Assembly (NCBI RefSeq): GCF_003991155.1
Contig: NZ_CP031294.1
From: Escherichia coli
GTDB taxonomy: Bacteria > Pseudomonadota > Gammaproteobacteria > Enterobacterales > Enterobacteriaceae
Direction: 5' to 3' (one strand)
Length of the DNA stretch: 64,000 bases
Below the pieces are notes generated by a model. It ran no database searches and had not been told where the DNA came from. It worked only from the letters and a program-made list of their open reading frames with translations. How positions within the stretch are numbered: position 1 is the stretch's first letter; each line of letters starts with the position of its first letter. This document shows, in pieces, positions 2,454-14,287 of the stretch. A program made the position numbers and the translations under genes.

Positions 2454-3206
2454 TTAATCTTTTAGGTATAAACCTACTGGAGTTCTTGTTTTGCGGGAGA
2501 TGATAAGTACGATAAATTTCTGAACGTTAACTTGCACTTTGTTTGGGAGCCAAGAGCTTAACTCTGCATCAAGCAACAATCCTCTGTTCCACGGCAAAAA
2601 TCCGGTTTCTTTCCCCATCCCGTACTCACCTAACACATCTTCGAACGTTTCTGTTTTGGCATTGTATATACGCACATCGCCGGTTCGCATGAGAGGCCCT
2701 GCCCAGATCTTAGCACCAGGAATGGTTTGTGTATCGTCGCAGACTAAATGCTCATACCAATGAAGAAGAAAGAGATAGGTACGGTGACACAATCCTCGCT
2801 GACGACGCTCTCTGACAGTTTCGACACCAGCTACCTGGTAACATTCGATCTCATTACCGTCTTCAACAAAACTATATTCACGCAGAGCTATCCTACCAGC
2901 GATCGTATTTTTGTTTTCGTCCAGAAGCCCGGACTGGAGCACCTCTTTGATAATCTCTTCTTCAGGGGCATCTTCATCCGCTCGATCTAAGATGAATTCG
3001 CTCAGGTCGCCTTGGTCGCGCGCACCTACACGTTCCATAGAGACATACAGGCAAATGTCATCTTCTGGTTCAATGATTTCAATTTCTGAGATTTTATAGA
3101 GGTAGGCTTCATTGATAAGAAAGCCAAAACGAACAACACGAGTCTCCCCTTTATGAGGAAACTCGCTTAGATCTTTTGAATATGCGCTATCTAGTGTAGG
3201 AGCCAT
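2454..3206 (-). CDS. hypothetical protein
   Basis: 250 aa ORF, no recognised motif. Confidence 0.45.
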   Translation of the reverse strand: MAPTLDSAYSKDLSEFPHKGETRVVRFGFLINEAYLYKISEIEIIEPEDDICLYVSMERVGARDQGDLSEFILDRADEDAPEEEIIKEVLQSGLLDENKNTIAGRIALREYSFVEDGNEIECYQVAGVETVRERRQRGLCHRTYLFLLHWYEHLVCDDTQTIPGAKIWAGPLMRTGDVRIYNAKTETFEDVLGEYGMGKETGFLPWNRGLLLDAELSSWLPNKVQVNVQKFIVLIISRKTRTPVGLYLKD

Positions 3207-3574
3207 TTTGTAGCAGAATCATCAGCCTTAACCGTGCTGACAATGCTACCATGATTGCGTAAGAAGCGGCGAATAGAATGTTCAATAACCTCCGAAAAAG
3301 CCTCGATAAAACGAGACAGCTCAGGGTACTGTTTAGCTGGCTTGACTACAAAACGAACACGACCATTCAGGTAAATTGCTTCAGCTAATGGCTTCACGCT
3401 TGCACCAGCGCGCTCAACATCGTCTTTGAAGGTAACGATGAAGCGTGAGTCTTCCGGTTCAATAGCGTCATTATTGAGCTTACGTACTTCAAGCTTGTGC
3501 TGATTCAGCACATGAGTCTCGATAATACTCGTGCAATCGCGAATAGTTTGTATAGAACGTTTCTCGTTCAGCAT
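3191..3574 (-). CDS. hypothetical protein
   Basis: 127 aa ORF overlapping the downstream gene by 16 nt. Confidence 0.45.
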   Translation of the reverse strand: MLNEKRSIQTIRDCTSIIETHVLNQHKLEVRKLNNDAIEPEDSRFIVTFKDDVERAGASVKPLAEAIYLNGRVRFVVKPAKQYPELSRFIEAFSEVIEHSIRRFLRNHGSIVSTVKADDSATKWLLH

Positions 3575-4199: not shown

Positions 4200-4919
4200 T
4201 TAGACCATCCCTTTCTGGTGTCTTCTTACCTGCGACCAGGCGATAAATCCAGCCACAACAATAGTGGCAATACCGAAGATGATGCGTACTGTATCCCCGC
4301 TAGAGATATGACCTTGTGCTTTATCCATAGCAGCGGAAACCTGCGGCATAACATCGGCCAGCTGCGCCAGACCAATACCTGCTGTAACAGTTGCGCCAGC
4401 GGTTTCTTTAGTTACAGGAACAGCCTTCACGGTTTTCACCGGCTTAACGACGCCAGCTCGACGCAGACCTTCCTCAATAACTTCTGCCGCATACCAGGTG
4501 TTCAGCGTTTTTAGTGGACCTCGACCATTCTCGTGGCGAATGATTGCCTCAACCAAAGGTCGAAGGATGTCGTAATCATGCAGATCGATGATCATGTCTG
4601 CGGTTACACCAACGGCTTTAGACACCTCATTAATGTAGGCGTCAGTGTTGTTTTCATTCGGCGGTGCCCAACGTTCAATAACTTCACGAATGGTATCGAT
4701 ACTTGAGCCGTCTTTTGCGCGACGTTTGTCGTGGTAGGTAATTAGAGTCACCGCCAGCGCACGAATCCCCCAAACAGGGTCTTTAAACGTGCAAAAGCGC
4801 GGTTCGTCTGGATTCGCAACCAGACCTTGCCACGGTGATCCTTTATCAAGATTACCGGGGTTATTATTACGAATGCCTCTCGGAGTCTTCATCCTTGATC
4901 TCCTGTTATTGCAGTCCAC
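4200..4919 (-). CDS. putative phage peptidoglycan hydrolase / lysis protein with C-terminal hydrophobic anchor
   Basis: 239 aa; GIRNNNPGNL N-terminal motif; C-terminal TM-like IIFGIATIVVAGFIAW; position between holin-like and spanin-like genes. Confidence 0.4.
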   Translation of the reverse strand: MDCNNRRSRMKTPRGIRNNNPGNLDKGSPWQGLVANPDEPRFCTFKDPVWGIRALAVTLITYHDKRRAKDGSSIDTIREVIERWAPPNENNTDAYINEVSKAVGVTADMIIDLHDYDILRPLVEAIIRHENGRGPLKTLNTWYAAEVIEEGLRRAGVVKPVKTVKAVPVTKETAGATVTAGIGLAQLADVMPQVSAAMDKAQGHISSGDTVRIIFGIATIVVAGFIAWSQVRRHQKGMV

Positions 4920-5241
4920 TTTTTACGCCATACGCGGCTAACCCCAAAAGCAGTGCGGTAATAATGAACGACGTTATTTTAGAAACAATGCCGCCAAAGA
5001 ACCCACTTGAGATGGAATCTAACCGGTTAAGGAGTTTGTCCAGATTGGAGTGTTGAATACTATGTTGCGCCGGGGTCATATCACCAAAGTAGGTTTTCAG
5101 CTGATCATTGACCTCCTGGCCAATTTCTTCACGTAGCTCTTTACCTAATTTGCCAACAACCTCCCGAGCAACGATCGCGGCAATACGCTCAACTTGCTCT
5201 GTTGTAACGCCCGCCATCTCGTTCGACATGTTTTCCTCCAT
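4906..5241 (-). CDS. small membrane-anchored protein, holin-like position
   Basis: 111 aa with C-terminal TM segment ITSFIITALLLGLAAYG; first gene of lysis cluster. Confidence 0.3.
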   Translation of the reverse strand: MEENMSNEMAGVTTEQVERIAAIVAREVVGKLGKELREEIGQEVNDQLKTYFGDMTPAQHSIQHSNLDKLLNRLDSISSGFFGGIVSKITSFIITALLLGLAAYGVKSGLQ

Positions 5242-5431: not shown

Positions 5432-8400
5432 TCAGTTACTTGTTGCCCCAACAGTACCTGCAAATTTCAGCCATTGACCTGACGGACTTCTATTACTACG
5501 GTAATGATAAACGAGGATTGCGTTTGTAACTCCACCGTAGTCAGCTTTATGTGACGTTGTTAAACGAATTGTATAATCACCGTTAGGTAGATTAAAAACT
5601 TCGATTATAGATTCTGCTAATTCTACAGCACCAAATCCCGTTATATTGTTGATACTGCCAGCATTGAATCCCATAGCATCGCCAAAGCCAATCCAATAAC
5701 TTTTGCTAAACGCCCCATTTGATTTTAGGTGGCTAATGAATGTGGACAAACTCATGCCCATATCCCCACCTGAAACAGAGGAAGTTCGCACAGTCATACT
5801 TGGAAGAGCACTGCTCTTCACATAGGAACTTAGAAGGTTTGTTACCTCTGTTTTCGTATAGGCATTAAGGTTAGCCGCAGTCAAAGTAATATCGGCAGAG
5901 CCATCAAACGCCACACCAGCAATTTTCCTTGCTGTCTGCAATTTTGTGGCAGTGGCAGCATTACCAGTAGTGTTCTGATTACCGGTTGTATTCACACCAG
6001 GTATTGAATCCTTAGCGGTATATACCTGCGCCCACGCAGACCATGCCGCATCAGTGGTATCTCTTCGGGAGCGAATGAAAACCGGCGCATGTGCACCGCT
6101 CGTACCACTCCAGCCAATAAGCAACTCGCCCTCACCAGCAGCACTCGCACCTTTCATGTGCAATACGTTGCCATACGTGGTCGGGTAGCTATTGCTGTAC
6201 GCCTCGTACATTTGAATGCCAGCAGTACCTTGAGCAGAACCGCTTAACGCCGTAACTCGGCCACGAGATACCAATGTATTAATGTTGATATCGCCTGAGC
6301 CATCAAACTTAACACCATTGATGTTTCTCGCTGTTTGCAACTTCGTAGCTGTTGAAGCATTACCGTTCAAACTACCATTTACGCCACCAGTCACATTTAG
6401 TCCATTACCAATTGATACAGCACCGCTGGTATTATTAATTGTAATAGGTCGCAAACCGTTCCATGAACCTAATGTGTCTCCTGATGCTGTTAGCATGAAA
6501 TATGTGTTCGATCCATCATTACGGATAAAGAACCCAAAGCTACCGTAAGCAATGCGGAAACCATTTGCATATTTTGAAATGATCTCGCCAGAAGATGTCA
6601 AACCTCCAGATAATGTACCACCGGTAAGAGGTAATGCACCGACATCAGAGGCTGTTGGTTTGTTTTTCGTGTTATATACTCTTCGCCATCCTGGAGAATA
6701 ATCTGTGCCATTAAATACATAGATAAACTCCGCATTAGTGAGAGCACCAGAGACACTCGTCGTTGTGGCCGTTGTTATACGGATCGTATAATTGTTTGAG
6801 CTACTACCGTTATTAAATACCTCTATAACAGCTCCTGCCAATGGAATAACGCCACAACCAGTTTCACTATTTGGTATGGTTGCACTATTGGCATAGGCCC
6901 ACGCACATCGAGCAATCCATGACTTTGTGTTAAATGCTCCATTATTTTGCAATAACGTCACTAACTGTGCTGTTGTTATTGCTCCGCCATTACTTCCTGT
7001 AGTTAACCAACCAGTAGGAGATGCCGGGCAACCTATATTTGCTGGCGACAAGGAAATATTTGCCGAGCCGTCAAACGACACCCCATTAATAGTACGCGCA
7101 GTCTGCAACTTCGTAGCAGTAGCCGCGTTGCCCGTTGTATTCTGATTACCAGTCGTATTAACACCTGGCAAATTAATATTCGCAGTACCATCAAAGCTCA
7201 CGCCGCCGATAGTTCTTGCCGTCTGAAGTTTTGTAGCAGTTGCAGCATTACCAGTGGTGTTCTGATTACCCGTAGTATTTACACCTGGAAGGTTGATATT
7301 TGCAGAACCGTCGAAACCAACTCCACCGATAGATCTTGCCGTCTGCAATTTCGTGGCTGTACTTGCATTACCATTCAATGAACCAGTTAATCCACCTGTA
7401 ACAGACAACGGACCTGAAACTGTTCCTCCGGTTGTTGGCAGTGCTCCAATATCTGATGGTGTAGGTTTCTGATGTGAGCTATACATCGTATAAACAACAC
7501 CATCGGTAACGCTGGAAGGCTTACTCGCTGAATATGTTGGCGAGGTATAAATAGAAACTGTCGCATTTGCAGTACAATCCCAATGGATATTTACACGAGT
7601 CGCATAATTGCCAATCTCAACGTAAATATCATATGTATCGCCGGATGTGTTGATCCAGGCGAAATTCGTTAATCCGACAGCTGTACGCTTCCACAAAGCA
7701 CCTGTAATCCCTTTGGGGTTTCCATTGCCTGCTCGTAGAACCAGTTCTGAAATGCCTGCCTGATGTGGGGAGCCGACGTTGTAACCAGCGCCACCAATCA
7801 ATGCGATGTAAACGATGGAACTCGCTTGTGGCATGGTAACCGTAGCCAGTTTGAACCACCCTGCCCCGCCAGAGAAAGACATCGTTACTGAATTTAAAGT
7901 ACCAATATCTTTCGGCGTTAATGTGATATCCGCAGTCAGTGCTTTACCGTTAACTTTTCGGTTAGATGGCACCCTGCTATTCGCATTGTCATTGGCTGCT
8001 TTAACTGCTTTTGGCGTTGCGGCCAGCGATTCACTGGTGCTGTCGACAGCACTGCTAAGTTTCACAACACCTTTAGTTGTAAGGCTTGCGTCTTCCATCG
8101 CAACTGCACCGGCAATCTCTTCAGCACGATCAGCAGCAGCTTCCGCACGGGTCGCAGCGGATTCAGCAGCAGTTTTGCTCTGAGATGCTGCCGTCGCACT
8201 GCCTGCCGCCTCTGTTGCTTTCGTGGATGCCGTCGTGGCACTGCCCTTCGCTGCTGACGCCTGTCTGGTCGCCTCATCTTTTGAAGCAGACGCAGATGAT
8301 GCCGATGACGCCGCCGAACTGGCGGACGATGCGGCAGCCGTTTTTGAGGATTCTGCGCTGGTTTCCGACGCTTTCGCGTTCGTTTCGGATGTCTTCGCTG

Positions 8401-9460
8401 CGGAAGCAGACCTCGCTGCTGCGCTGGCCTGTTCAGTGGCTTCGCCAGCCTTCGTTGTGGCTGTTGAAGCAGACGATGCGGCACTTTCTGCCGATTTTCC
8501 GGCGGCGGTGGCACTGGCTGAGGCCTGCCCGGCACTTGTTGACGCGGCACTGGCAGACGACGCAGCCGCTGTTTTTGAGCCTGCCGCAGCTGAGGCACTC
8601 TGTGCTGCTGCCGTCTCAGAAGACTTAGCGTTCGTCTCGGACGTTTTTGCCGCCTTCGCGGAATTGCCTGCCGCTGTTGCCGAGGAGGCTGCACTACTGG
8701 CGCTCAAGGATGCGTTCGTTTCTGATGATTTCGCTGCCTCTTTTGAGGCCGCCGCATCCCGGACTGAGGTGGCAGCTTCTGACGCTTTCGTGGTCGCGGT
8801 GGATGCAGAAGTGGCTGCTGATTGTTGTGACGCTGCGGCATTCGTTTCAGATTTTTTCGCAGCAGTTGCACTCGCACTTGCGGCACTTTGTGAGGATGCC
8901 GCAGCGGATGCACTTTGAGACGCTTGAGAGGCTTTTTCTCCAGCGGTATTGGCGCTTTCTGCTGCTGCGGCAGCACTGGCCGCCGCCTCACGAGCTTTGT
9001 CGCCAGCAGCATCAATCGCGTCAGTGTTATTTTTATACCACTCAACGTTTTCGTTGTGCTCGTTGACGATCTGCATTAGCGGCTTAACGGTTACTTCTGT
9101 ACCGTCTTCACGCTCGATTGTCACCTCATCCAGAGCAGTCAACCAACTGCGCATAGACTTGGAATCAGCCGACATACGCGACATTAGTGCTGTAAAGCGC
9201 GCGCTAAACTGTGTTAAGTCGCCTTCATAGGTCGTAATGATTCGGCACGGAACCTCAGACTGAGTTTCGCCGGTATAAGGTTCTGAGAGAACAATATTCG
9301 TATCGCTTATTACGCGCTTGATCTCATACAGCTTATTGTCGGGGCCAATGACGATCATCCCCGGCAACACACCATTAGCTGTTACGTTCCAGGCTGTCCC
9401 TGCCCCAACCAGAGTATTGCTACCCTGTGTAAATGTGATAGTACCTTCCCTGTACCACAT
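5432..9460 (-). CDS. phage tail fibre protein (long, Ser/Ala-rich linker, repeated GNAATATKLQTAR fibre repeats)
   Basis: 1342 aa; low-complexity A/S/T region; three or more tandem ~50-aa repeats containing GNAATATKLQTAR typical of phage fibre proteins; located downstream of J-like gene. Confidence 0.85.
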   Translation of the reverse strand: MWYREGTITFTQGSNTLVGAGTAWNVTANGVLPGMIVIGPDNKLYEIKRVISDTNIVLSEPYTGETQSEVPCRIITTYEGDLTQFSARFTALMSRMSADSKSMRSWLTALDEVTIEREDGTEVTVKPLMQIVNEHNENVEWYKNNTDAIDAAGDKAREAAASAAAAAESANTAGEKASQASQSASAAASSQSAASASATAAKKSETNAAASQQSAATSASTATTKASEAATSVRDAAASKEAAKSSETNASLSASSAASSATAAGNSAKAAKTSETNAKSSETAAAQSASAAAGSKTAAASSASAASTSAGQASASATAAGKSAESAASSASTATTKAGEATEQASAAARSASAAKTSETNAKASETSAESSKTAAASSASSAASSASSASASKDEATRQASAAKGSATTASTKATEAAGSATAASQSKTAAESAATRAEAAADRAEEIAGAVAMEDASLTTKGVVKLSSAVDSTSESLAATPKAVKAANDNANSRVPSNRKVNGKALTADITLTPKDIGTLNSVTMSFSGGAGWFKLATVTMPQASSIVYIALIGGAGYNVGSPHQAGISELVLRAGNGNPKGITGALWKRTAVGLTNFAWINTSGDTYDIYVEIGNYATRVNIHWDCTANATVSIYTSPTYSASKPSSVTDGVVYTMYSSHQKPTPSDIGALPTTGGTVSGPLSVTGGLTGSLNGNASTATKLQTARSIGGVGFDGSANINLPGVNTTGNQNTTGNAATATKLQTARTIGGVSFDGTANINLPGVNTTGNQNTTGNAATATKLQTARTINGVSFDGSANISLSPANIGCPASPTGWLTTGSNGGAITTAQLVTLLQNNGAFNTKSWIARCAWAYANSATIPNSETGCGVIPLAGAVIEVFNNGSSSNNYTIRITTATTTSVSGALTNAEFIYVFNGTDYSPGWRRVYNTKNKPTASDVGALPLTGGTLSGGLTSSGEIISKYANGFRIAYGSFGFFIRNDGSNTYFMLTASGDTLGSWNGLRPITINNTSGAVSIGNGLNVTGGVNGSLNGNASTATKLQTARNINGVKFDGSGDININTLVSRGRVTALSGSAQGTAGIQMYEAYSNSYPTTYGNVLHMKGASAAGEGELLIGWSGTSGAHAPVFIRSRRDTTDAAWSAWAQVYTAKDSIPGVNTTGNQNTTGNAATATKLQTARKIAGVAFDGSADITLTAANLNAYTKTEVTNLLSSYVKSSALPSMTVRTSSVSGGDMGMSLSTFISHLKSNGAFSKSYWIGFGDAMGFNAGSINNITGFGAVELAESIIEVFNLPNGDYTIRLTTSHKADYGGVTNAILVYHYRSNRSPSGQWLKFAGTVGATSN

Positions 9461-9553: not shown

Positions 9554-12500
9554 TCACAGACGGCCAATTCTTACTCGTAGGACGTTGTTATCGTCATAAA
9601 CGTCAATCCGCTGACCATTTATAACCAATCTCCCATTGCCGCCGCTATTACCGTTGATCTCAAGCGTTCCATTTTTGCCGAACCGCCATCCAGATCTACC
9701 GCTAACAAAATTGGTAGATTGCAGATCGCCTACTTTTGCATTGGTGATTGTGCCATCCTTGATATACGCTCCATTCATATAGGCGATACTGTTTTCGATA
9801 ACAAATGGCGTTGTGATCTTCCCGTTAACAGAGTTGACCAAACCAAACCTGTCCGCCTGAACCAAAAACTGAGATAGCCCAGTGGTGTCAATACCAAGCG
9901 CAATACCGGCAACATACTTCTGCCCTCCGCTCGTTGAAGTCTCCATTTTCAACGTCCACGCGGTTGATACTTTTTTGTTGGTATCAGCAATAGCTGTTGC
10001 CTGCTGTTGAATTGTCGCGGTATTTCCATCCACCTCTGCTTTCAGAGTATCGATTCGCCCACTCAGAGCATTATCTGCCTGCGTTCTCGCTGTCGTTTCA
10101 GTTGTGACCGCCGCAGAAATGTTGGCTGCTGTTTGAGACTCTAAGTTTGTGATTTGAGTCGCCAATGCAGCATCTTGCTCTGTACGCGTTTTCGTTTCGG
10201 TTGCTACAGCCGCTTTAATATCCTCTTTGTATTGAGAGGTCAGCTTGGTGATCTGAGACGACAACGCCGAGTCAGCATCAGTTCGAGCCTGCGTTTCAAC
10301 TGCAACGGCCGCACTAATATCTTTCGCTGTCTGTGCTTTTAAACTTGAAACCTCTTTTGTTAAAGCGGTATCACCATCTGCACGAGCCGTTGTTTCTCTG
10401 GCAAGAGACGCCTCGAGATCATTAGCTTTTGCTGTAAGAGACGTAATCTGGGTAGACAATGCACTATCGGCATCAGTCCTTGCTTTTGTCTCTACAGCAA
10501 CCGCTGCGGCAATATCAGTTCCGGTTTGTGCTCGCAGGCTGTTAATTTCTCGTGAGAGCGCCTGGTCAGCACTTGCTCTGGCCTCCTGCTCCTGAGTGAT
10601 GGCCGCGGATATATCACCGTCAACCTTTGACTGAAGCTGGTTTATTTGTTTGGCTAACGCAGAGTCCCCGCTTGCTCGGGCCTCCTGCTCACTACGTATT
10701 GCAGCAGAAATATCATCATCAACCTTTGCCTGAAGTTGGGTGATCTGGCTTGCCAGAGCCGAATCTTCCGTTGCTCGGGCTTCTTGCTCTTCCTTAATAG
10801 CTGCGACGATATCGTTGCTTACTTTCGACTCAAGCTGAGTGATCTGTGTCGTCAGAGCTTCATCGGCAGATGTACGAGCCTCCTGCTCTGTACTAATCGC
10901 CGCGCTGATATCTCCTTCAAACTTAGATTGCAGCTGAGTGACACGCTTTGCCAACGCTTCATCGCCATCGGCACGAGCGGTGGACTCTTCCAGAATACTG
11001 GCCTTAATGTCTTCGCCAATTTCTACGCGAATTTCCTCAACCTTCGTGGCCATTGCAGACATATCATCAGCAAAGGTTTTCTGTGTTGTTGCGATCTTCG
11101 CGTTATTGACCATCTGCTTGTGCTGGTCTTCATCTTGACGAAGAGCCAGGTCAATATTTGTTTTGGCTAACGCCTCAATGTTCGTAGTCAGTTCTGCACT
11201 GGCACGATCGACCTCTGCAACCGTCTTTTTCATTTCTTCAACGGCAGCGGAGCTTTCCTCTACCGTTGACTGCAACACTTCCAGTTGTTTAGCGTTTGCA
11301 GCATCGCCTTCAACACGAGCCTCGCTTTCCTTAGCAATAAGAGCCGCCGCTTCATCTCTTGCAGCCTTTATTGCCTCGACTGTATTAGCGAGAGCTTTAT
11401 CGTGTTCAGATACGGTGTTTTCGATTTCAACAATTGCAGCATCAGTAGCATCAATTTTTTCAAACGCTTCATTGACCTTGTCGATCGTTGCCGAAACCTC
11501 ACCTTTAAGCTCGGTTTGTGCGTTCTCCAAAGCATCGCTACGCTCGTTGAATTTTATTTCAAAATCCGCGAGGTTATCGCTGAACTGCTTATCTAATTCA
11601 GCTATATCTTCCTTAACGTCGTTTACCGCCCCCTCCAAAGATTCGACGCTCTGGTTGATATGCTCATTTAACTCGTCAACTGCTTCTTGAGAGGCTTTGC
11701 TGTTGATGTCCTCAAGCAGAGCCTGACCAAGCTCGGAAGATGTAATTTTGCCAGTCAGGAACGACAGTACATCGCGAGTTGTCGCCTCTGTACCCAAGTT
11801 TGAGTTCGGAGGACTTAACATACCTCGCTTGTTCGATGCTCGAACCCAGTAATACCACGTTTCGCTATCCCCAAGACCAGCATGTGTAAAGGTGGTGCTT
11901 GCAGACTCTGCGATCAGTTTCGCCGTATCCAGATTGTTGGTCTGGGATGCGTAAACATTAATGTGATCAAGGTCTACCGAATCTGGATTAACCCAATTCA
12001 GTATCACATTACGATAGTCTCCAACGGCCGTTAATGACGTTGGGGCATCCGGCGGTGTCATTGTGCCCAACACCTGATAAACGGTACTGATAATCTCTGT
12101 TTTTTTACCGTTGAATGAAACCGCATACAGCTGGAAGTCGTAGCGTCCATTCTCCGCGACATTAACGATTTCGTATTGCTCTTCGGTTACACGCGCCGAT
12201 TGCCAGTTCGATACATTGTTTTCATCAGAACGTCGCCAACTGATCCAATACTCTGGAGATTTCCCTTCCCATGTTGCAGTCAGTTTTACTGACAGGTTGC
12301 CCGGGCTTGAGAGATAAGTCCCTTCAGTGATTTGCAGATTAGATGGCTTGGAGTAAGTTGGGTCCAATACCGTCGTATTCTGCGGGATCAGCGTTGCACC
12401 ATTGTCGATTGCCTCATATTTAGACGGATTGTTCTCAACAGCGGTGATGTCAAAGCTACCCGGCGTTTCCCCTTGCGCGATGTTAACGATGCGAACGCGC

Positions 12501-14287
12501 ATAGGTTCGAGGTCTGGTTCTGTAATAGTCCAGACGCCGTTCAAAACAGGCGTTTCAGCCGAAGACAGGGCTTTTGAAAACGTAACTTTTGTTATATTTT
12601 CGCCAGTTTCAAGAACATCGCGTTCAACGATTTTGCCTTCCTGATTCAGTATTCGAATAAAGCAGCCGCCTTTGGCTAACGACACAGGCGCATCGAGTGT
12701 GACGCTGTTTTTGGTAAACGCCACAATTCGACCTGAGTTACGTTTGCCTGCGCGATATTTGTTCTGAATCAGAACGGTTTCACCAGGCATCAGAAATGAC
12801 GCGTCTAAGCCGGCAGTAAATGTAATTACATCCGACTCCATTCTGGCGGTATATAAAAGCCACAAACCAACTCGGTGAGCCTGCCCTCGGCTTGTACAGC
12901 CAAATGCTACGACTTCTGTTTTACGCTCACCATAACGGCGCATTGCGTCCTGATCTTCGACGTACTCGATGTTTTGCTTATAACCGTCCTCCTTGTTGTT
13001 GTAGGTTACGAGCGCAACGGATGGGCGATCTTTACGCGCAGAACCTTTATAGGTAAACAATCCATCTTTGACGTTAGAGTTGGTAAACATCATTACCGGA
13101 TCTGATGGGCTATCCTGCATGATGTTAACCATCCCACCAGCCCAAAACACCATGCCGCGGAATGCTCCGGCAATATCCTGAATTAGCCGGTATGCGTCCT
13201 GTCGACTGGTGATCTGCGTATTGATTGCAAAGCGTTTCTCTTTGCCACCAAAGCCATCATCGACCTCTTCGTCACAATATCGACCAATCTGGTACAACTG
13301 GCCAAGGTCAATCATAGATTCCGACACATACTGACCAAGGCCATATCGAGCATTGGTCAGCAAATCAAAGAGAATCCACGCGGGGTTCGAAGAAGACAAC
13401 AGCTTAAAAGTGCCATCCCATACCCCAGCGTAAGTGTTACTGGACTCGTTATAGTTTGAAGGTACTCGAATTTTTAGGCCACGCACCAGATAAGAGCGAG
13501 ATGGCATGGTGCTGCCGAATTGCTCAGAGTTTACCTTCAATCCAACCAAAACAGAGTTTGGATAGTTCATCGGTGTATCGACAATTTCCCCGATTGAATC
13601 CACCCATGTATCGTTATAGAGATACTGGCTACTGTTATCATCGGTAATACGGACCACACGAACCTTGTATGCTCGTCCAGGCTTAGGCAGCTTCAGCTCA
13701 TAGCTACGGTAATAAACGCCGGTCTTCTTTGCTGTTAGCTTAATGCCAACGCTTTTTTCACCTTCAGCGACCACATCTACAAATGTTGAGTCGCCATTTG
13801 CTATCTGGAACTTGTACTCAACAGTCGTACCGTTCGTGTCACCAGTTTTTTTATCTATGCTTCGCAAAGAAGGAAACTTCATGATGACACGAACCCGATC
13901 AGCTTCATCGTTATCGATTGAAACCGTTACATAATGTGTTTTTTTTAACTGGATATTGACGGATTTAGGCGTTTCAACGAAATCAAAGCCAGACATTGGA
14001 GTCTGGTCTTGTGAACCGTCGCGAAAATCCCATGTGATTCCGCTGAAGTTGGAGGAACCGTCTTCATTTACAATCGGCAGATCGTCGATAAAAATAGATC
14101 TTGCGCCATTTACTAAGCCGCCAATTACCCCTTCCCCAAGAAGATCGAGGATAGCGGCCATTGCACGAGAATTTACGGTATCGTCGGCTTCAACCGGTGT
14201 ACGGCTGGAGCTTTTGCTGCTTTTTTTACCACCCGCACCGGCAATAAACAGCGGTAGCTTTTTCTTCTTGAACTGTTCCATGTTCAA
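9554..14287 (-). CDS. lambda J-like central tail fibre / host specificity protein with internal coiled-coil repeat array
   Basis: 1577 aa; conserved J motifs NYPNSVLVGLKVNSEQFGS, GVWDGTFK, AFGCTSRGQAHRVGLWLLYT; C-terminal domain resembles lambda J C-terminus. Confidence 0.9.
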   Translation of the reverse strand: MNMEQFKKKKLPLFIAGAGGKKSSKSSSRTPVEADDTVNSRAMAAILDLLGEGVIGGLVNGARSIFIDDLPIVNEDGSSNFSGITWDFRDGSQDQTPMSGFDFVETPKSVNIQLKKTHYVTVSIDNDEADRVRVIMKFPSLRSIDKKTGDTNGTTVEYKFQIANGDSTFVDVVAEGEKSVGIKLTAKKTGVYYRSYELKLPKPGRAYKVRVVRITDDNSSQYLYNDTWVDSIGEIVDTPMNYPNSVLVGLKVNSEQFGSTMPSRSYLVRGLKIRVPSNYNESSNTYAGVWDGTFKLLSSSNPAWILFDLLTNARYGLGQYVSESMIDLGQLYQIGRYCDEEVDDGFGGKEKRFAINTQITSRQDAYRLIQDIAGAFRGMVFWAGGMVNIMQDSPSDPVMMFTNSNVKDGLFTYKGSARKDRPSVALVTYNNKEDGYKQNIEYVEDQDAMRRYGERKTEVVAFGCTSRGQAHRVGLWLLYTARMESDVITFTAGLDASFLMPGETVLIQNKYRAGKRNSGRIVAFTKNSVTLDAPVSLAKGGCFIRILNQEGKIVERDVLETGENITKVTFSKALSSAETPVLNGVWTITEPDLEPMRVRIVNIAQGETPGSFDITAVENNPSKYEAIDNGATLIPQNTTVLDPTYSKPSNLQITEGTYLSSPGNLSVKLTATWEGKSPEYWISWRRSDENNVSNWQSARVTEEQYEIVNVAENGRYDFQLYAVSFNGKKTEIISTVYQVLGTMTPPDAPTSLTAVGDYRNVILNWVNPDSVDLDHINVYASQTNNLDTAKLIAESASTTFTHAGLGDSETWYYWVRASNKRGMLSPPNSNLGTEATTRDVLSFLTGKITSSELGQALLEDINSKASQEAVDELNEHINQSVESLEGAVNDVKEDIAELDKQFSDNLADFEIKFNERSDALENAQTELKGEVSATIDKVNEAFEKIDATDAAIVEIENTVSEHDKALANTVEAIKAARDEAAALIAKESEARVEGDAANAKQLEVLQSTVEESSAAVEEMKKTVAEVDRASAELTTNIEALAKTNIDLALRQDEDQHKQMVNNAKIATTQKTFADDMSAMATKVEEIRVEIGEDIKASILEESTARADGDEALAKRVTQLQSKFEGDISAAISTEQEARTSADEALTTQITQLESKVSNDIVAAIKEEQEARATEDSALASQITQLQAKVDDDISAAIRSEQEARASGDSALAKQINQLQSKVDGDISAAITQEQEARASADQALSREINSLRAQTGTDIAAAVAVETKARTDADSALSTQITSLTAKANDLEASLARETTARADGDTALTKEVSSLKAQTAKDISAAVAVETQARTDADSALSSQITKLTSQYKEDIKAAVATETKTRTEQDAALATQITNLESQTAANISAAVTTETTARTQADNALSGRIDTLKAEVDGNTATIQQQATAIADTNKKVSTAWTLKMETSTSGGQKYVAGIALGIDTTGLSQFLVQADRFGLVNSVNGKITTPFVIENSIAYMNGAYIKDGTITNAKVGDLQSTNFVSGRSGWRFGKNGTLEINGNSGGNGRLVINGQRIDVYDDNNVLRVRIGRL

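Follow-up and report, generated by a model that had tools for sequence, protein, structure and literature searches.

A probable modular side tail fibre with a heptad-repeat stalk on an SSU5-like phage-plasmid of Escherichia coli

A stretch of 64,000 nucleotides of Escherichia coli DNA (contig NZ_CP031294.1; the whole stretch is referred to here as the window) carries on its minus strand an open reading frame (ORF) of 1342 codons plus stop (5432..9460), which very likely encodes the side (lateral) tail fibre of an SSU5-like E. coli phage-plasmid, a modular protein made up of an N-terminal anchor, a coiled-coil stalk and a series of distal knobs. The ORF listing and the translation contain zero internal stops, and an interruption of the low-complexity region was looked for and neither frameshift nor stop was found there, so that the gene is complete. 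The first-pass annotation, made from the sequence alone, had called it a very long tail fibre, and this is borne out by its length, by top PHROG matches that are tail fibre families (E = 0) and by matches to the fibres of Mu and T4. At the nucleotide level the gene is identical (100%) to genes annotated as “phage tail protein” on non-mobilizable E. coli plasmids of 110–112 kb; the 24 plasmid records that match best show 97.7–100% identity, and ≥80% of the gene is covered in 86 plasmid records. Cyrano, which is the phage-plasmid pLF82 of strain LF82, has an annotated tail fibre that matches the window gene with 96% identity in nucleotides and 91% in amino acids.

The fibre gene lies 93 bp downstream of the gene for a 1577-aa J-like host-specificity protein (9554..14287) and is followed by a holin (4906..5241), then by an endolysin-like ORF and spanin-like ORFs. 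This order of J, fibre and holin/lysis genes is the same in phage Cyrano and in Salmonella phage SSU5. Based on the plasmid identity, the likeness to Cyrano and the shared gene order, the window is assigned to an SSU5-like phage-plasmid; Cyrano yields siphovirus virions upon induction with ciprofloxacin (PMC9928086). Identical genes are already annotated publicly, and the gene is of a known kind, in keeping with the mosaic structure long established for tail fibres; mosaic and modular fibres are also described in RBPseg (PMC12143355).

The heptad stalk

Residues 147–454 (8099..9022, minus strand) form a probable coiled-coil stalk and not the disordered or low-complexity linker that had been proposed for positions 8020–9015. 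The A/S/T/K/E-rich composition noted at first stands (A+S+T = 73%, without C, F, H, P, W or Y), with the extent corrected to 8099–9022; the linker interpretation is contradicted by the register-perfect heptads, by the predicted helix, by purifying selection and by the conservation of the stretch as a module. Written in rows of seven, the stretch resolves into 43–44 unbroken heptads of the pattern xSAxxAx without stutter, with Ala at one register position in all 43 of 43 consecutive heptads (aa 152+7n, to 446) and mostly Ser or Ala three or four residues from this invariant Ala. Autocorrelation relative to shuffled sequences gives z = 7–11 at all multiples of 7, and Fourier analysis shows peaks at 3.5 and 7.0 residues. 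A single-sequence AlphaFold2 prediction gives a continuous helix over aa 128–495, with a predicted local distance difference test (pLDDT) score of ~75–85 in a model of mean 71 in which the monomer is folded back on itself; structure prediction thus agrees with a helical stalk and not with a linker. Coiled-coil geometry implies a rise of ~0.148 nm per residue. For the 308 stalk residues this gives a computed rod of ~45 nm.

The DNA of the stalk is a widely shared module. Nucleotides 525–1478 of the gene are 87–92% identical to the Stf genes of many lambdoid phages, and phi458 is 95% identical to the window gene over nt 525–2287. Among 5426 complete E. coli genomes, 4067 (75%) contain the stalk DNA (954 bp, window 7983–8936) at ≥80% identity. 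It occupies 6508 genomic places altogether, with as many as 7 in a single genome, and stfR of the Rac prophage of K-12 is one of them. Present in up to seven prophages of one genome, the stalk DNA would be a ready substrate for recombination. It was also observed that most stalk homologues in the databases are ‘partial’ proteins on short contigs, and the shared repeat probably breaks short-read assemblies.

Heptads were counted without alignment, by stepping back in sevens from the conserved TxKG(I/V)VxLS motif that follows the stalk; global alignment had placed gaps arbitrarily in this repetitive sequence and was dropped in favour of the register count. All homologues counted have the same register and the same 15-residue offset to the motif. 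In homologues with lambda-type N-termini the first register Ala is at residue 127 and the motif at residue 359, 366, 415 or 464, equivalent to 32, 33, 40 and 47 heptads, respectively; with SSU5-type N-termini the motif is at 356 or 461 (28 or 43 heptads). Among homologues that share an N-terminus, the motif is therefore displaced by multiples of 7 only. Homologues with both ends span 28–47 heptads (~29–49 nm), with a single outlier at 10. Such lengths are expected of a register-constrained coiled coil and not of a disordered linker.

The alternative that the A/S/T stretch is a disordered, flexible linker of which the exact sequence and length are unimportant could appeal to its extreme composition, devoid of aromatics, Pro and Cys, and to the zero domains that Pfam and NCBIfam place over the stretch (the NCBIfam scan of the entire window fibre likewise gave zero matches). 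We regard it as very improbable in view of the strict seven-residue periodicity with its invariant Ala, of homologue stalks that change length by whole heptads only, of the predicted continuous helix, and of the earlier listing of lambda Stf as a long coiled-coil protein (PMC1322226). It is also at odds with selection on the protein sequence: in a gapless comparison with phage Turner (88% nucleotide identity over 954 nt) the differences number 24, 16 and 77 at codon positions 1, 2 and 3, and this excess at third positions indicates that the annotated frame is under purifying selection. The same bias bears on the suggestion that a real gene is encoded by one or more of the long ORFs that overlap the stalk (e.g., 8223..8918, plus strand, 231 aa). 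ORFs of 113–231 aa do overlap the stalk on both strands, the corresponding other-frame ORFs reach 326–327 aa in CMS-2020a, and some ORFs of this sort are annotated in public records as hypothetical proteins. However, these open frames follow from the codon set of the stalk, which is dominated by GCN, TCN, AGY, ACN, AAA and GAA; across its 924 nt, just 1, 1 and 3 stops interrupt three of the five non-coding frames, compared with 11–21 stops per non-coding frame in a control stretch taken from the same gene. The translations of the overlapping ORFs merely mirror the heptads, and the concentration of substitutions at third codon positions of the fibre frame would be unexpected were another frame constrained. 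A real overlapping gene is thus extremely improbable, and the original remark that the overlapping ORFs are spurious on both strands is upheld by the stop statistics together with the codon-position bias.

Anchor, distal modules and their exchange

Upstream of the coiled-coil stalk, the fibre begins with an SSU5-type anchor (aa 1–146, MWYREGTITFTQ...; 9023..9460, minus strand), an N-terminus common to the fibres of CMS-2020a and SSU5. Over its first 515 nt, the SSU5 fibre gene is 78% identical to the window gene, and similarity to SSU5 is confined to the first 515–741 nt of the latter. PF08400, the N-terminal domain of prophage tail fibres, is absent from the window fibre even at E ≤ 1, whereas the Stf of Turner scores 241 bits for this model in the same scan. 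Judging from its position, the anchor would attach to the tail tip. The change from SSU5-type to lambda-type sequence falls near aa 172–175, ~3 heptads inside the coiled coil; the junction is placed within the heptads because lambdoid identity begins at nt 525 and SSU5 similarity ends at 515–741.

The stalk is followed by a conserved junction motif (aa 455–505, MEDASLTTKGVVKLSSAVDSTSESLAATPKAVKAANDNAN...; 7946..8098, minus strand), which served as the fixed anchor of the heptad counts and aligns to residues 105–156 of Mu S (PDB 8ju3, 5yvq; E = 1.5e-07 to 2.4e-07). Beyond it lies knob domain C (aa 506–665; 7466..7945, minus strand), for which no match was found in Pfam or in PDB sequences; the CMS-2020a fibre has a second copy of knob C close to its tip, and SSU5 has a diverged one. 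The CMS-2020a sequence (CP053388, L005 3001–8580) encodes a 1576-aa fibre with two knob C copies and an S74 end; the next gene is for a Gly-rich gp38-type adhesin of 279 aa (PF05268 at 238 bits), and the record is unannotated. Domain E (aa 813–935; 6656..7024, minus strand) is a Mu S′-type shaft domain, matching residues 186–334 of the Mu tail fibre S/S′ chain 8ju3 in phmmer with E = 1.4e-27. The adjoining domain F (~aa 936–1021; 6398..6655, minus strand) is of the gp34-trimer type (PF21446 Gp34_trimer at 101 bits, cut-off 27), with PDB matches to residues 243–340 of Mu S (5yvq) and to T4 gp34 (4uxe, 5nxf, 5nxh). Knob domain G (aa 1062–1154; 5999..6277, minus strand), defined as a swappable cassette by comparison with Cyrano, is distantly related to residues 324–406 of Mu S′. 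At the fibre tip, the C-terminal domain I (aa 1226–1342; 5435..5785, minus strand) is a second Mu S′-type copy and a paralogue of domain E (32% identity, E = 3e-14); in relatives of 30–40% identity the domain lies within fibres of up to 3594 aa.

The distal modules are interspersed with copies of a 40-aa connector repeat, identified by the GNAATATKLQTAR motif, which has five occurrences in the window fibre. Repeat detection with Tandem Repeats Finder (TRF) gave a period of 120 bp, in agreement with the 120/120 spacing of the units, so that each unit comprises 40 aa (120 bp); the motif that had been recognised initially is real, and its assigned period of ~150 bp is not. Three units are in tandem (aa 686–805; 7046..7405, minus strand; from TRF, spacing and unit alignment), which agrees with the array reported near 6950–7400. 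The second array, reported at 5900–6010, is a single dispersed copy (repeat 5, aa 1155–1194; 5879..5998, minus strand), and a further dispersed copy had been missed (repeat 4, aa 1022–1061; 6278..6397, minus strand), both identified by motif and unit alignment. In the unit alignment, 24–36 of 40 residues are identical, and two subtypes can be distinguished: units 1 and 4 share 30/40 residues, and units 2, 3 and 5 share 33–36/40. The copies are 71–77% identical in nucleotides and match each other in BLASTP with E = 1e-14 to 1e-23. No Pfam model matches the 40-aa unit; Phage_fiber_2 and Phage_fiber were considered and rejected, with no match even at E ≤ 1. The sole structural lead for the connector is a weak match (E = 0.01–0.09) of the repeat motif NAxTAxKLxTARTI...FDGSAN to the C-terminal residues 87–133 of phage L Dec (PDB 6e3c), although Dec is a capsid decoration protein rather than a fibre and contains one copy.

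The connector repeats coincide with boundaries between modules of different ancestry. The window and Cyrano fibres consist of blocks that are 93–100% identical except at aa ~1047–1150, where only 5–8 of 30 residues per block are identical; the left breakpoint of this swap lies in repeat 4 and the right one just before repeat 5. A third knob type is present within the same flanks among database proteins. The window-type knob G occurs on 222 plasmids, some SSU5-like and some P1-like in size, and at 57–77% amino acid identity in the fibres of SSU5, P1 Sv′, Goslar and Ro157c2YLVW; P1 Sv′ matches aa 1040–1318 of the window fibre with 57% identity over 279 aa. The high-identity blocks shared with CMS-2020a (aa 1–764) and phi458 (aa 175–762) end inside the tandem array. 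Other homologues are 95–97% identical from aa 1148 on, or their match ends at aa 804–808 or aa 1219, and SSU5 and CMS-2020a have the same modules in a different order and copy number. These comparisons support a role for the repeats as points at which knobs and modules would be exchanged between phages, and the initial expectation that such fibres evolve by repeat shuffling finds support in the Cyrano knob swap and in the ends of the CMS-2020a and phi458 blocks.

Comparison with known fibres places the window gene between several systems. Like the lambdoid Stf proteins (lambda Stf, StfR of Rac), with which its stalk DNA is 87–95% identical, the window fibre has the KG(I/V)VxLSS...ATPKAVK motif and is encoded after J, and it has the gp34-trimer domain in common with Turner, a member of this group; its 43 heptads compare with 32–47 in lambdoid Stf. 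Unlike these proteins, it has an SSU5-type anchor rather than PF08400, no Tfa gene and no Collar or Phage_fiber tip domains. Its C-terminal segment is homologous to Sv′ of the Mu S/S′ (gp49/gp52; 5yvq, 8ju3) and P1 S/S′ systems, although Mu is a myovirus and the window phage a siphovirus. Compared with Mu and P1, the 64-kb window is without an invertible segment, an invertase and a U/U′ chaperone; compared with Mu, the fibre has the Mu S′-type domain twice, once at its terminus. The long coiled-coil stalk is without counterpart in the PDB chains of Mu, which match the junction motif and distal domains only. With SSU5 gp21 and the CMS-2020a fibre, the window fibre shares the anchor, gene position, stalk, domain C, 40-aa repeats, knob G, and the Mu S′-type and gp34-trimer domains, but these fibres end in an S74 chaperone with a gp38-type adhesin next, whereas the window/Cyrano allele ends in domain I. 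The likeness to T4 gp34 is limited to a single domain of ~85 aa in its C-terminal region (PF21446; domain F at 101 bits, E ~1e-21), and gp34 is a proximal half-fibre joined to gp35–37, whereas domain F occupies a central place in a single-chain fibre.

The fibre tip and proposed function

Several results weigh against a modular, functional side tail fibre of the proposed form. The tip is without recognisable helpers: a tblastn search of the 64-kb window for Tfa, U/U′, gp38-type adhesins and the small phi458 ORFs gave nothing better than E = 0.17, and a Peptidase_S74 domain (PF13884), the intramolecular chaperone of T5 pb1 and endosialidase-type fibres, is absent from the window fibre. AlphaFold2 monomer models reach a mean pLDDT of just 67–71, with the stalk doubling back on itself. 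The link between breakpoints and repeats comes from a handful of non-independent comparisons, and a systematic breakpoint census based on the ends of BLAST HSPs (high-scoring segment pairs) was dropped, with just six events. Furthermore, the report on Cyrano covers the production of virions and not their infectivity (PMC9928086).

The missing helpers raise the question of whether the gene is a truncated or decaying fibre, its true tip and chaperone deleted, ending mid-shaft and either non-functional or dispensable. In favour of this, P1 Sv′ runs ~190 aa past the end of the window fibre and is followed by the U′ chaperone; Turner, P1 and Mu all have a Tfa/U chaperone; and the fibres of SSU5 and CMS-2020a have a C-terminal Peptidase_S74 domain (42 bits) and a downstream gp38-type adhesin, neither of which the window gene has, the 190 bp between its stop and the holin containing no ORF >37 aa and no Tfa (PF02413 Caudo_TAP) gene. 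In addition, the fibre ends in domain I, which is paralogous to an internal domain and has an internal counterpart in Mu S′. Nevertheless, we consider decay improbable. The ORF is intact and the allele is conserved across the plasmid records described above; among 1.8 billion representative proteins, the close domain I relatives with complete C-termini have the domain 0–3 residues from the end, and several clusters at 50% identity end in this manner. The C-terminal 190 aa are near-identical between the window and Cyrano despite the adjacent knob swap, which suggests retention through recombination, and Cyrano makes virions on induction. Either the terminal Mu S′-type domain folds unaided as the tip, or a helper is encoded elsewhere, or the fibre is partly defective, and conservation of the allele argues against decay. 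Still less is to be said for a C-terminus switched by site-specific inversion as in P1, Mu and some lambdoids. The distal modules do have homology with the Sv′ segments that invert in P1 and Mu, and both phi458 and Turner, which share the stalk, have an invertase beside their fibre genes. However, the 64-kb window of this ~110-kb element contains no homologue of P1 Cin (tblastn) and no cix-like site (≤6 mismatches), from which it follows that the tip would not be switched by inversion here; there is also no inverted alternative tip or U/U′ gene downstream, where the holin begins after 190 bp. Within the 64 kb covered, inversion is almost certainly not the explanation.

The reading of the gene as a side tail fibre leads to the following proposal. 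The fibre would be expressed in the late tail operon with J and the holin, and the protein would be a homotrimer with the SSU5-type anchor (aa 1–146) docked on the tail tip. A parallel α-helical stalk of 43 heptads (~45 nm), with a core of small residues formed by the invariant Ala and the Ser or Ala beside it, could keep the three chains in register. Past the KGVVKLSS...ATPKAVK junction, a predominantly β-structured distal shaft would carry knobs C, E, gp34-trimer, G and I, strung together by the five copies of the 40-residue connector. Fibres of SSU5 provide one analogy for a receptor in the lipopolysaccharide (LPS) core. Those of Mu, reported to recognise LPS core, provide another (PMC11821841). 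By analogy, the receptor class is probably LPS core, and the distal knobs would bind this surface saccharide reversibly, positioning the virion before irreversible adsorption mediated by J. Cassette exchange would make use of the heptad DNA and the connector repeats as conserved junctions, such that anchors, stalk lengths in whole heptads, and knobs could recombine between phage-plasmids, lambdoid prophages and P1/Mu-type phages, presumably by homologous recombination within the shared stalk DNA and the connector repeats. It could further be speculated that this is a fibre without a dedicated chaperone, with a re-used Mu S′-type shaft domain as its tip, and that the invariant-Ala stalk acts as a length-quantised ruler, reset by in-register recombination between phage-plasmid and prophage to match the depth of the host surface layer; we put this forward tentatively, as an idea that is rather unlikely to be correct.

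Flanking genes and implications for annotation

Additional features were observed in genes flanking the fibre. The J-like protein (9554–14287, minus strand; 1577 aa) contains at least nine tandem 33-residue repeats at aa 1126–1421 (window ~10025–10912), with the consensus DISAAIxxEQEARxxxDxALxxQIxQLxxKVxx, a protein autocorrelation peak at lag 33 and a 99-bp TRF period at 10572–10789; these repeats have the look of a coiled-coil extension inserted close to the C-terminus. Downstream of the holin, an ORF at 4200–4919 (minus strand, 239 aa) occupies the position of the annotated endolysin of Cyrano, its first 14 nt overlapping the end of the holin ORF; the encoded protein has a hydrophobic C-terminal segment (IIFGIATIVVAGFIAW) and no Pfam match at E ≤ 0.001. 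Past the lysis genes, ORFs of 250 and 127 aa (2454–3574, minus strand) are located where Cyrano has a KacT-type toxin/antitoxin pair.

The almost stop-free non-coding frames of the stalk account for the truncation and splitting of this fibre gene in public records. In phi458 (L002 4440–7329), an antisense ‘hypothetical protein’ is annotated across the stalk, and the true 966-codon Stf ORF is split. In NCBI assemblies of sister phage-plasmids (L006 5493–9530; L007–L009), the last 509 codons are called of an intact 1345-codon ORF, which leaves 2.6 kb unannotated. The 509-aa gene call was checked directly on its contigs; the protein homologue search gave only matches below ~1.75 times the query length, the shortness of which is not biological.

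The established view of tail fibres as modular and horizontally exchanged is unchanged by these findings, within which two points are of modest interest, namely the stalk of invariant-Ala heptads, strictly quantised in length, and a tip that apparently has no chaperone. The heptads near aa 175, the tandem repeats near aa 762–805, and repeats 4 and 5 on either side of the knob cassette would offer natural junctions for the construction of chimeric fibres. The main value of the analysis lies in the annotation and interpretation of this fibre gene family.

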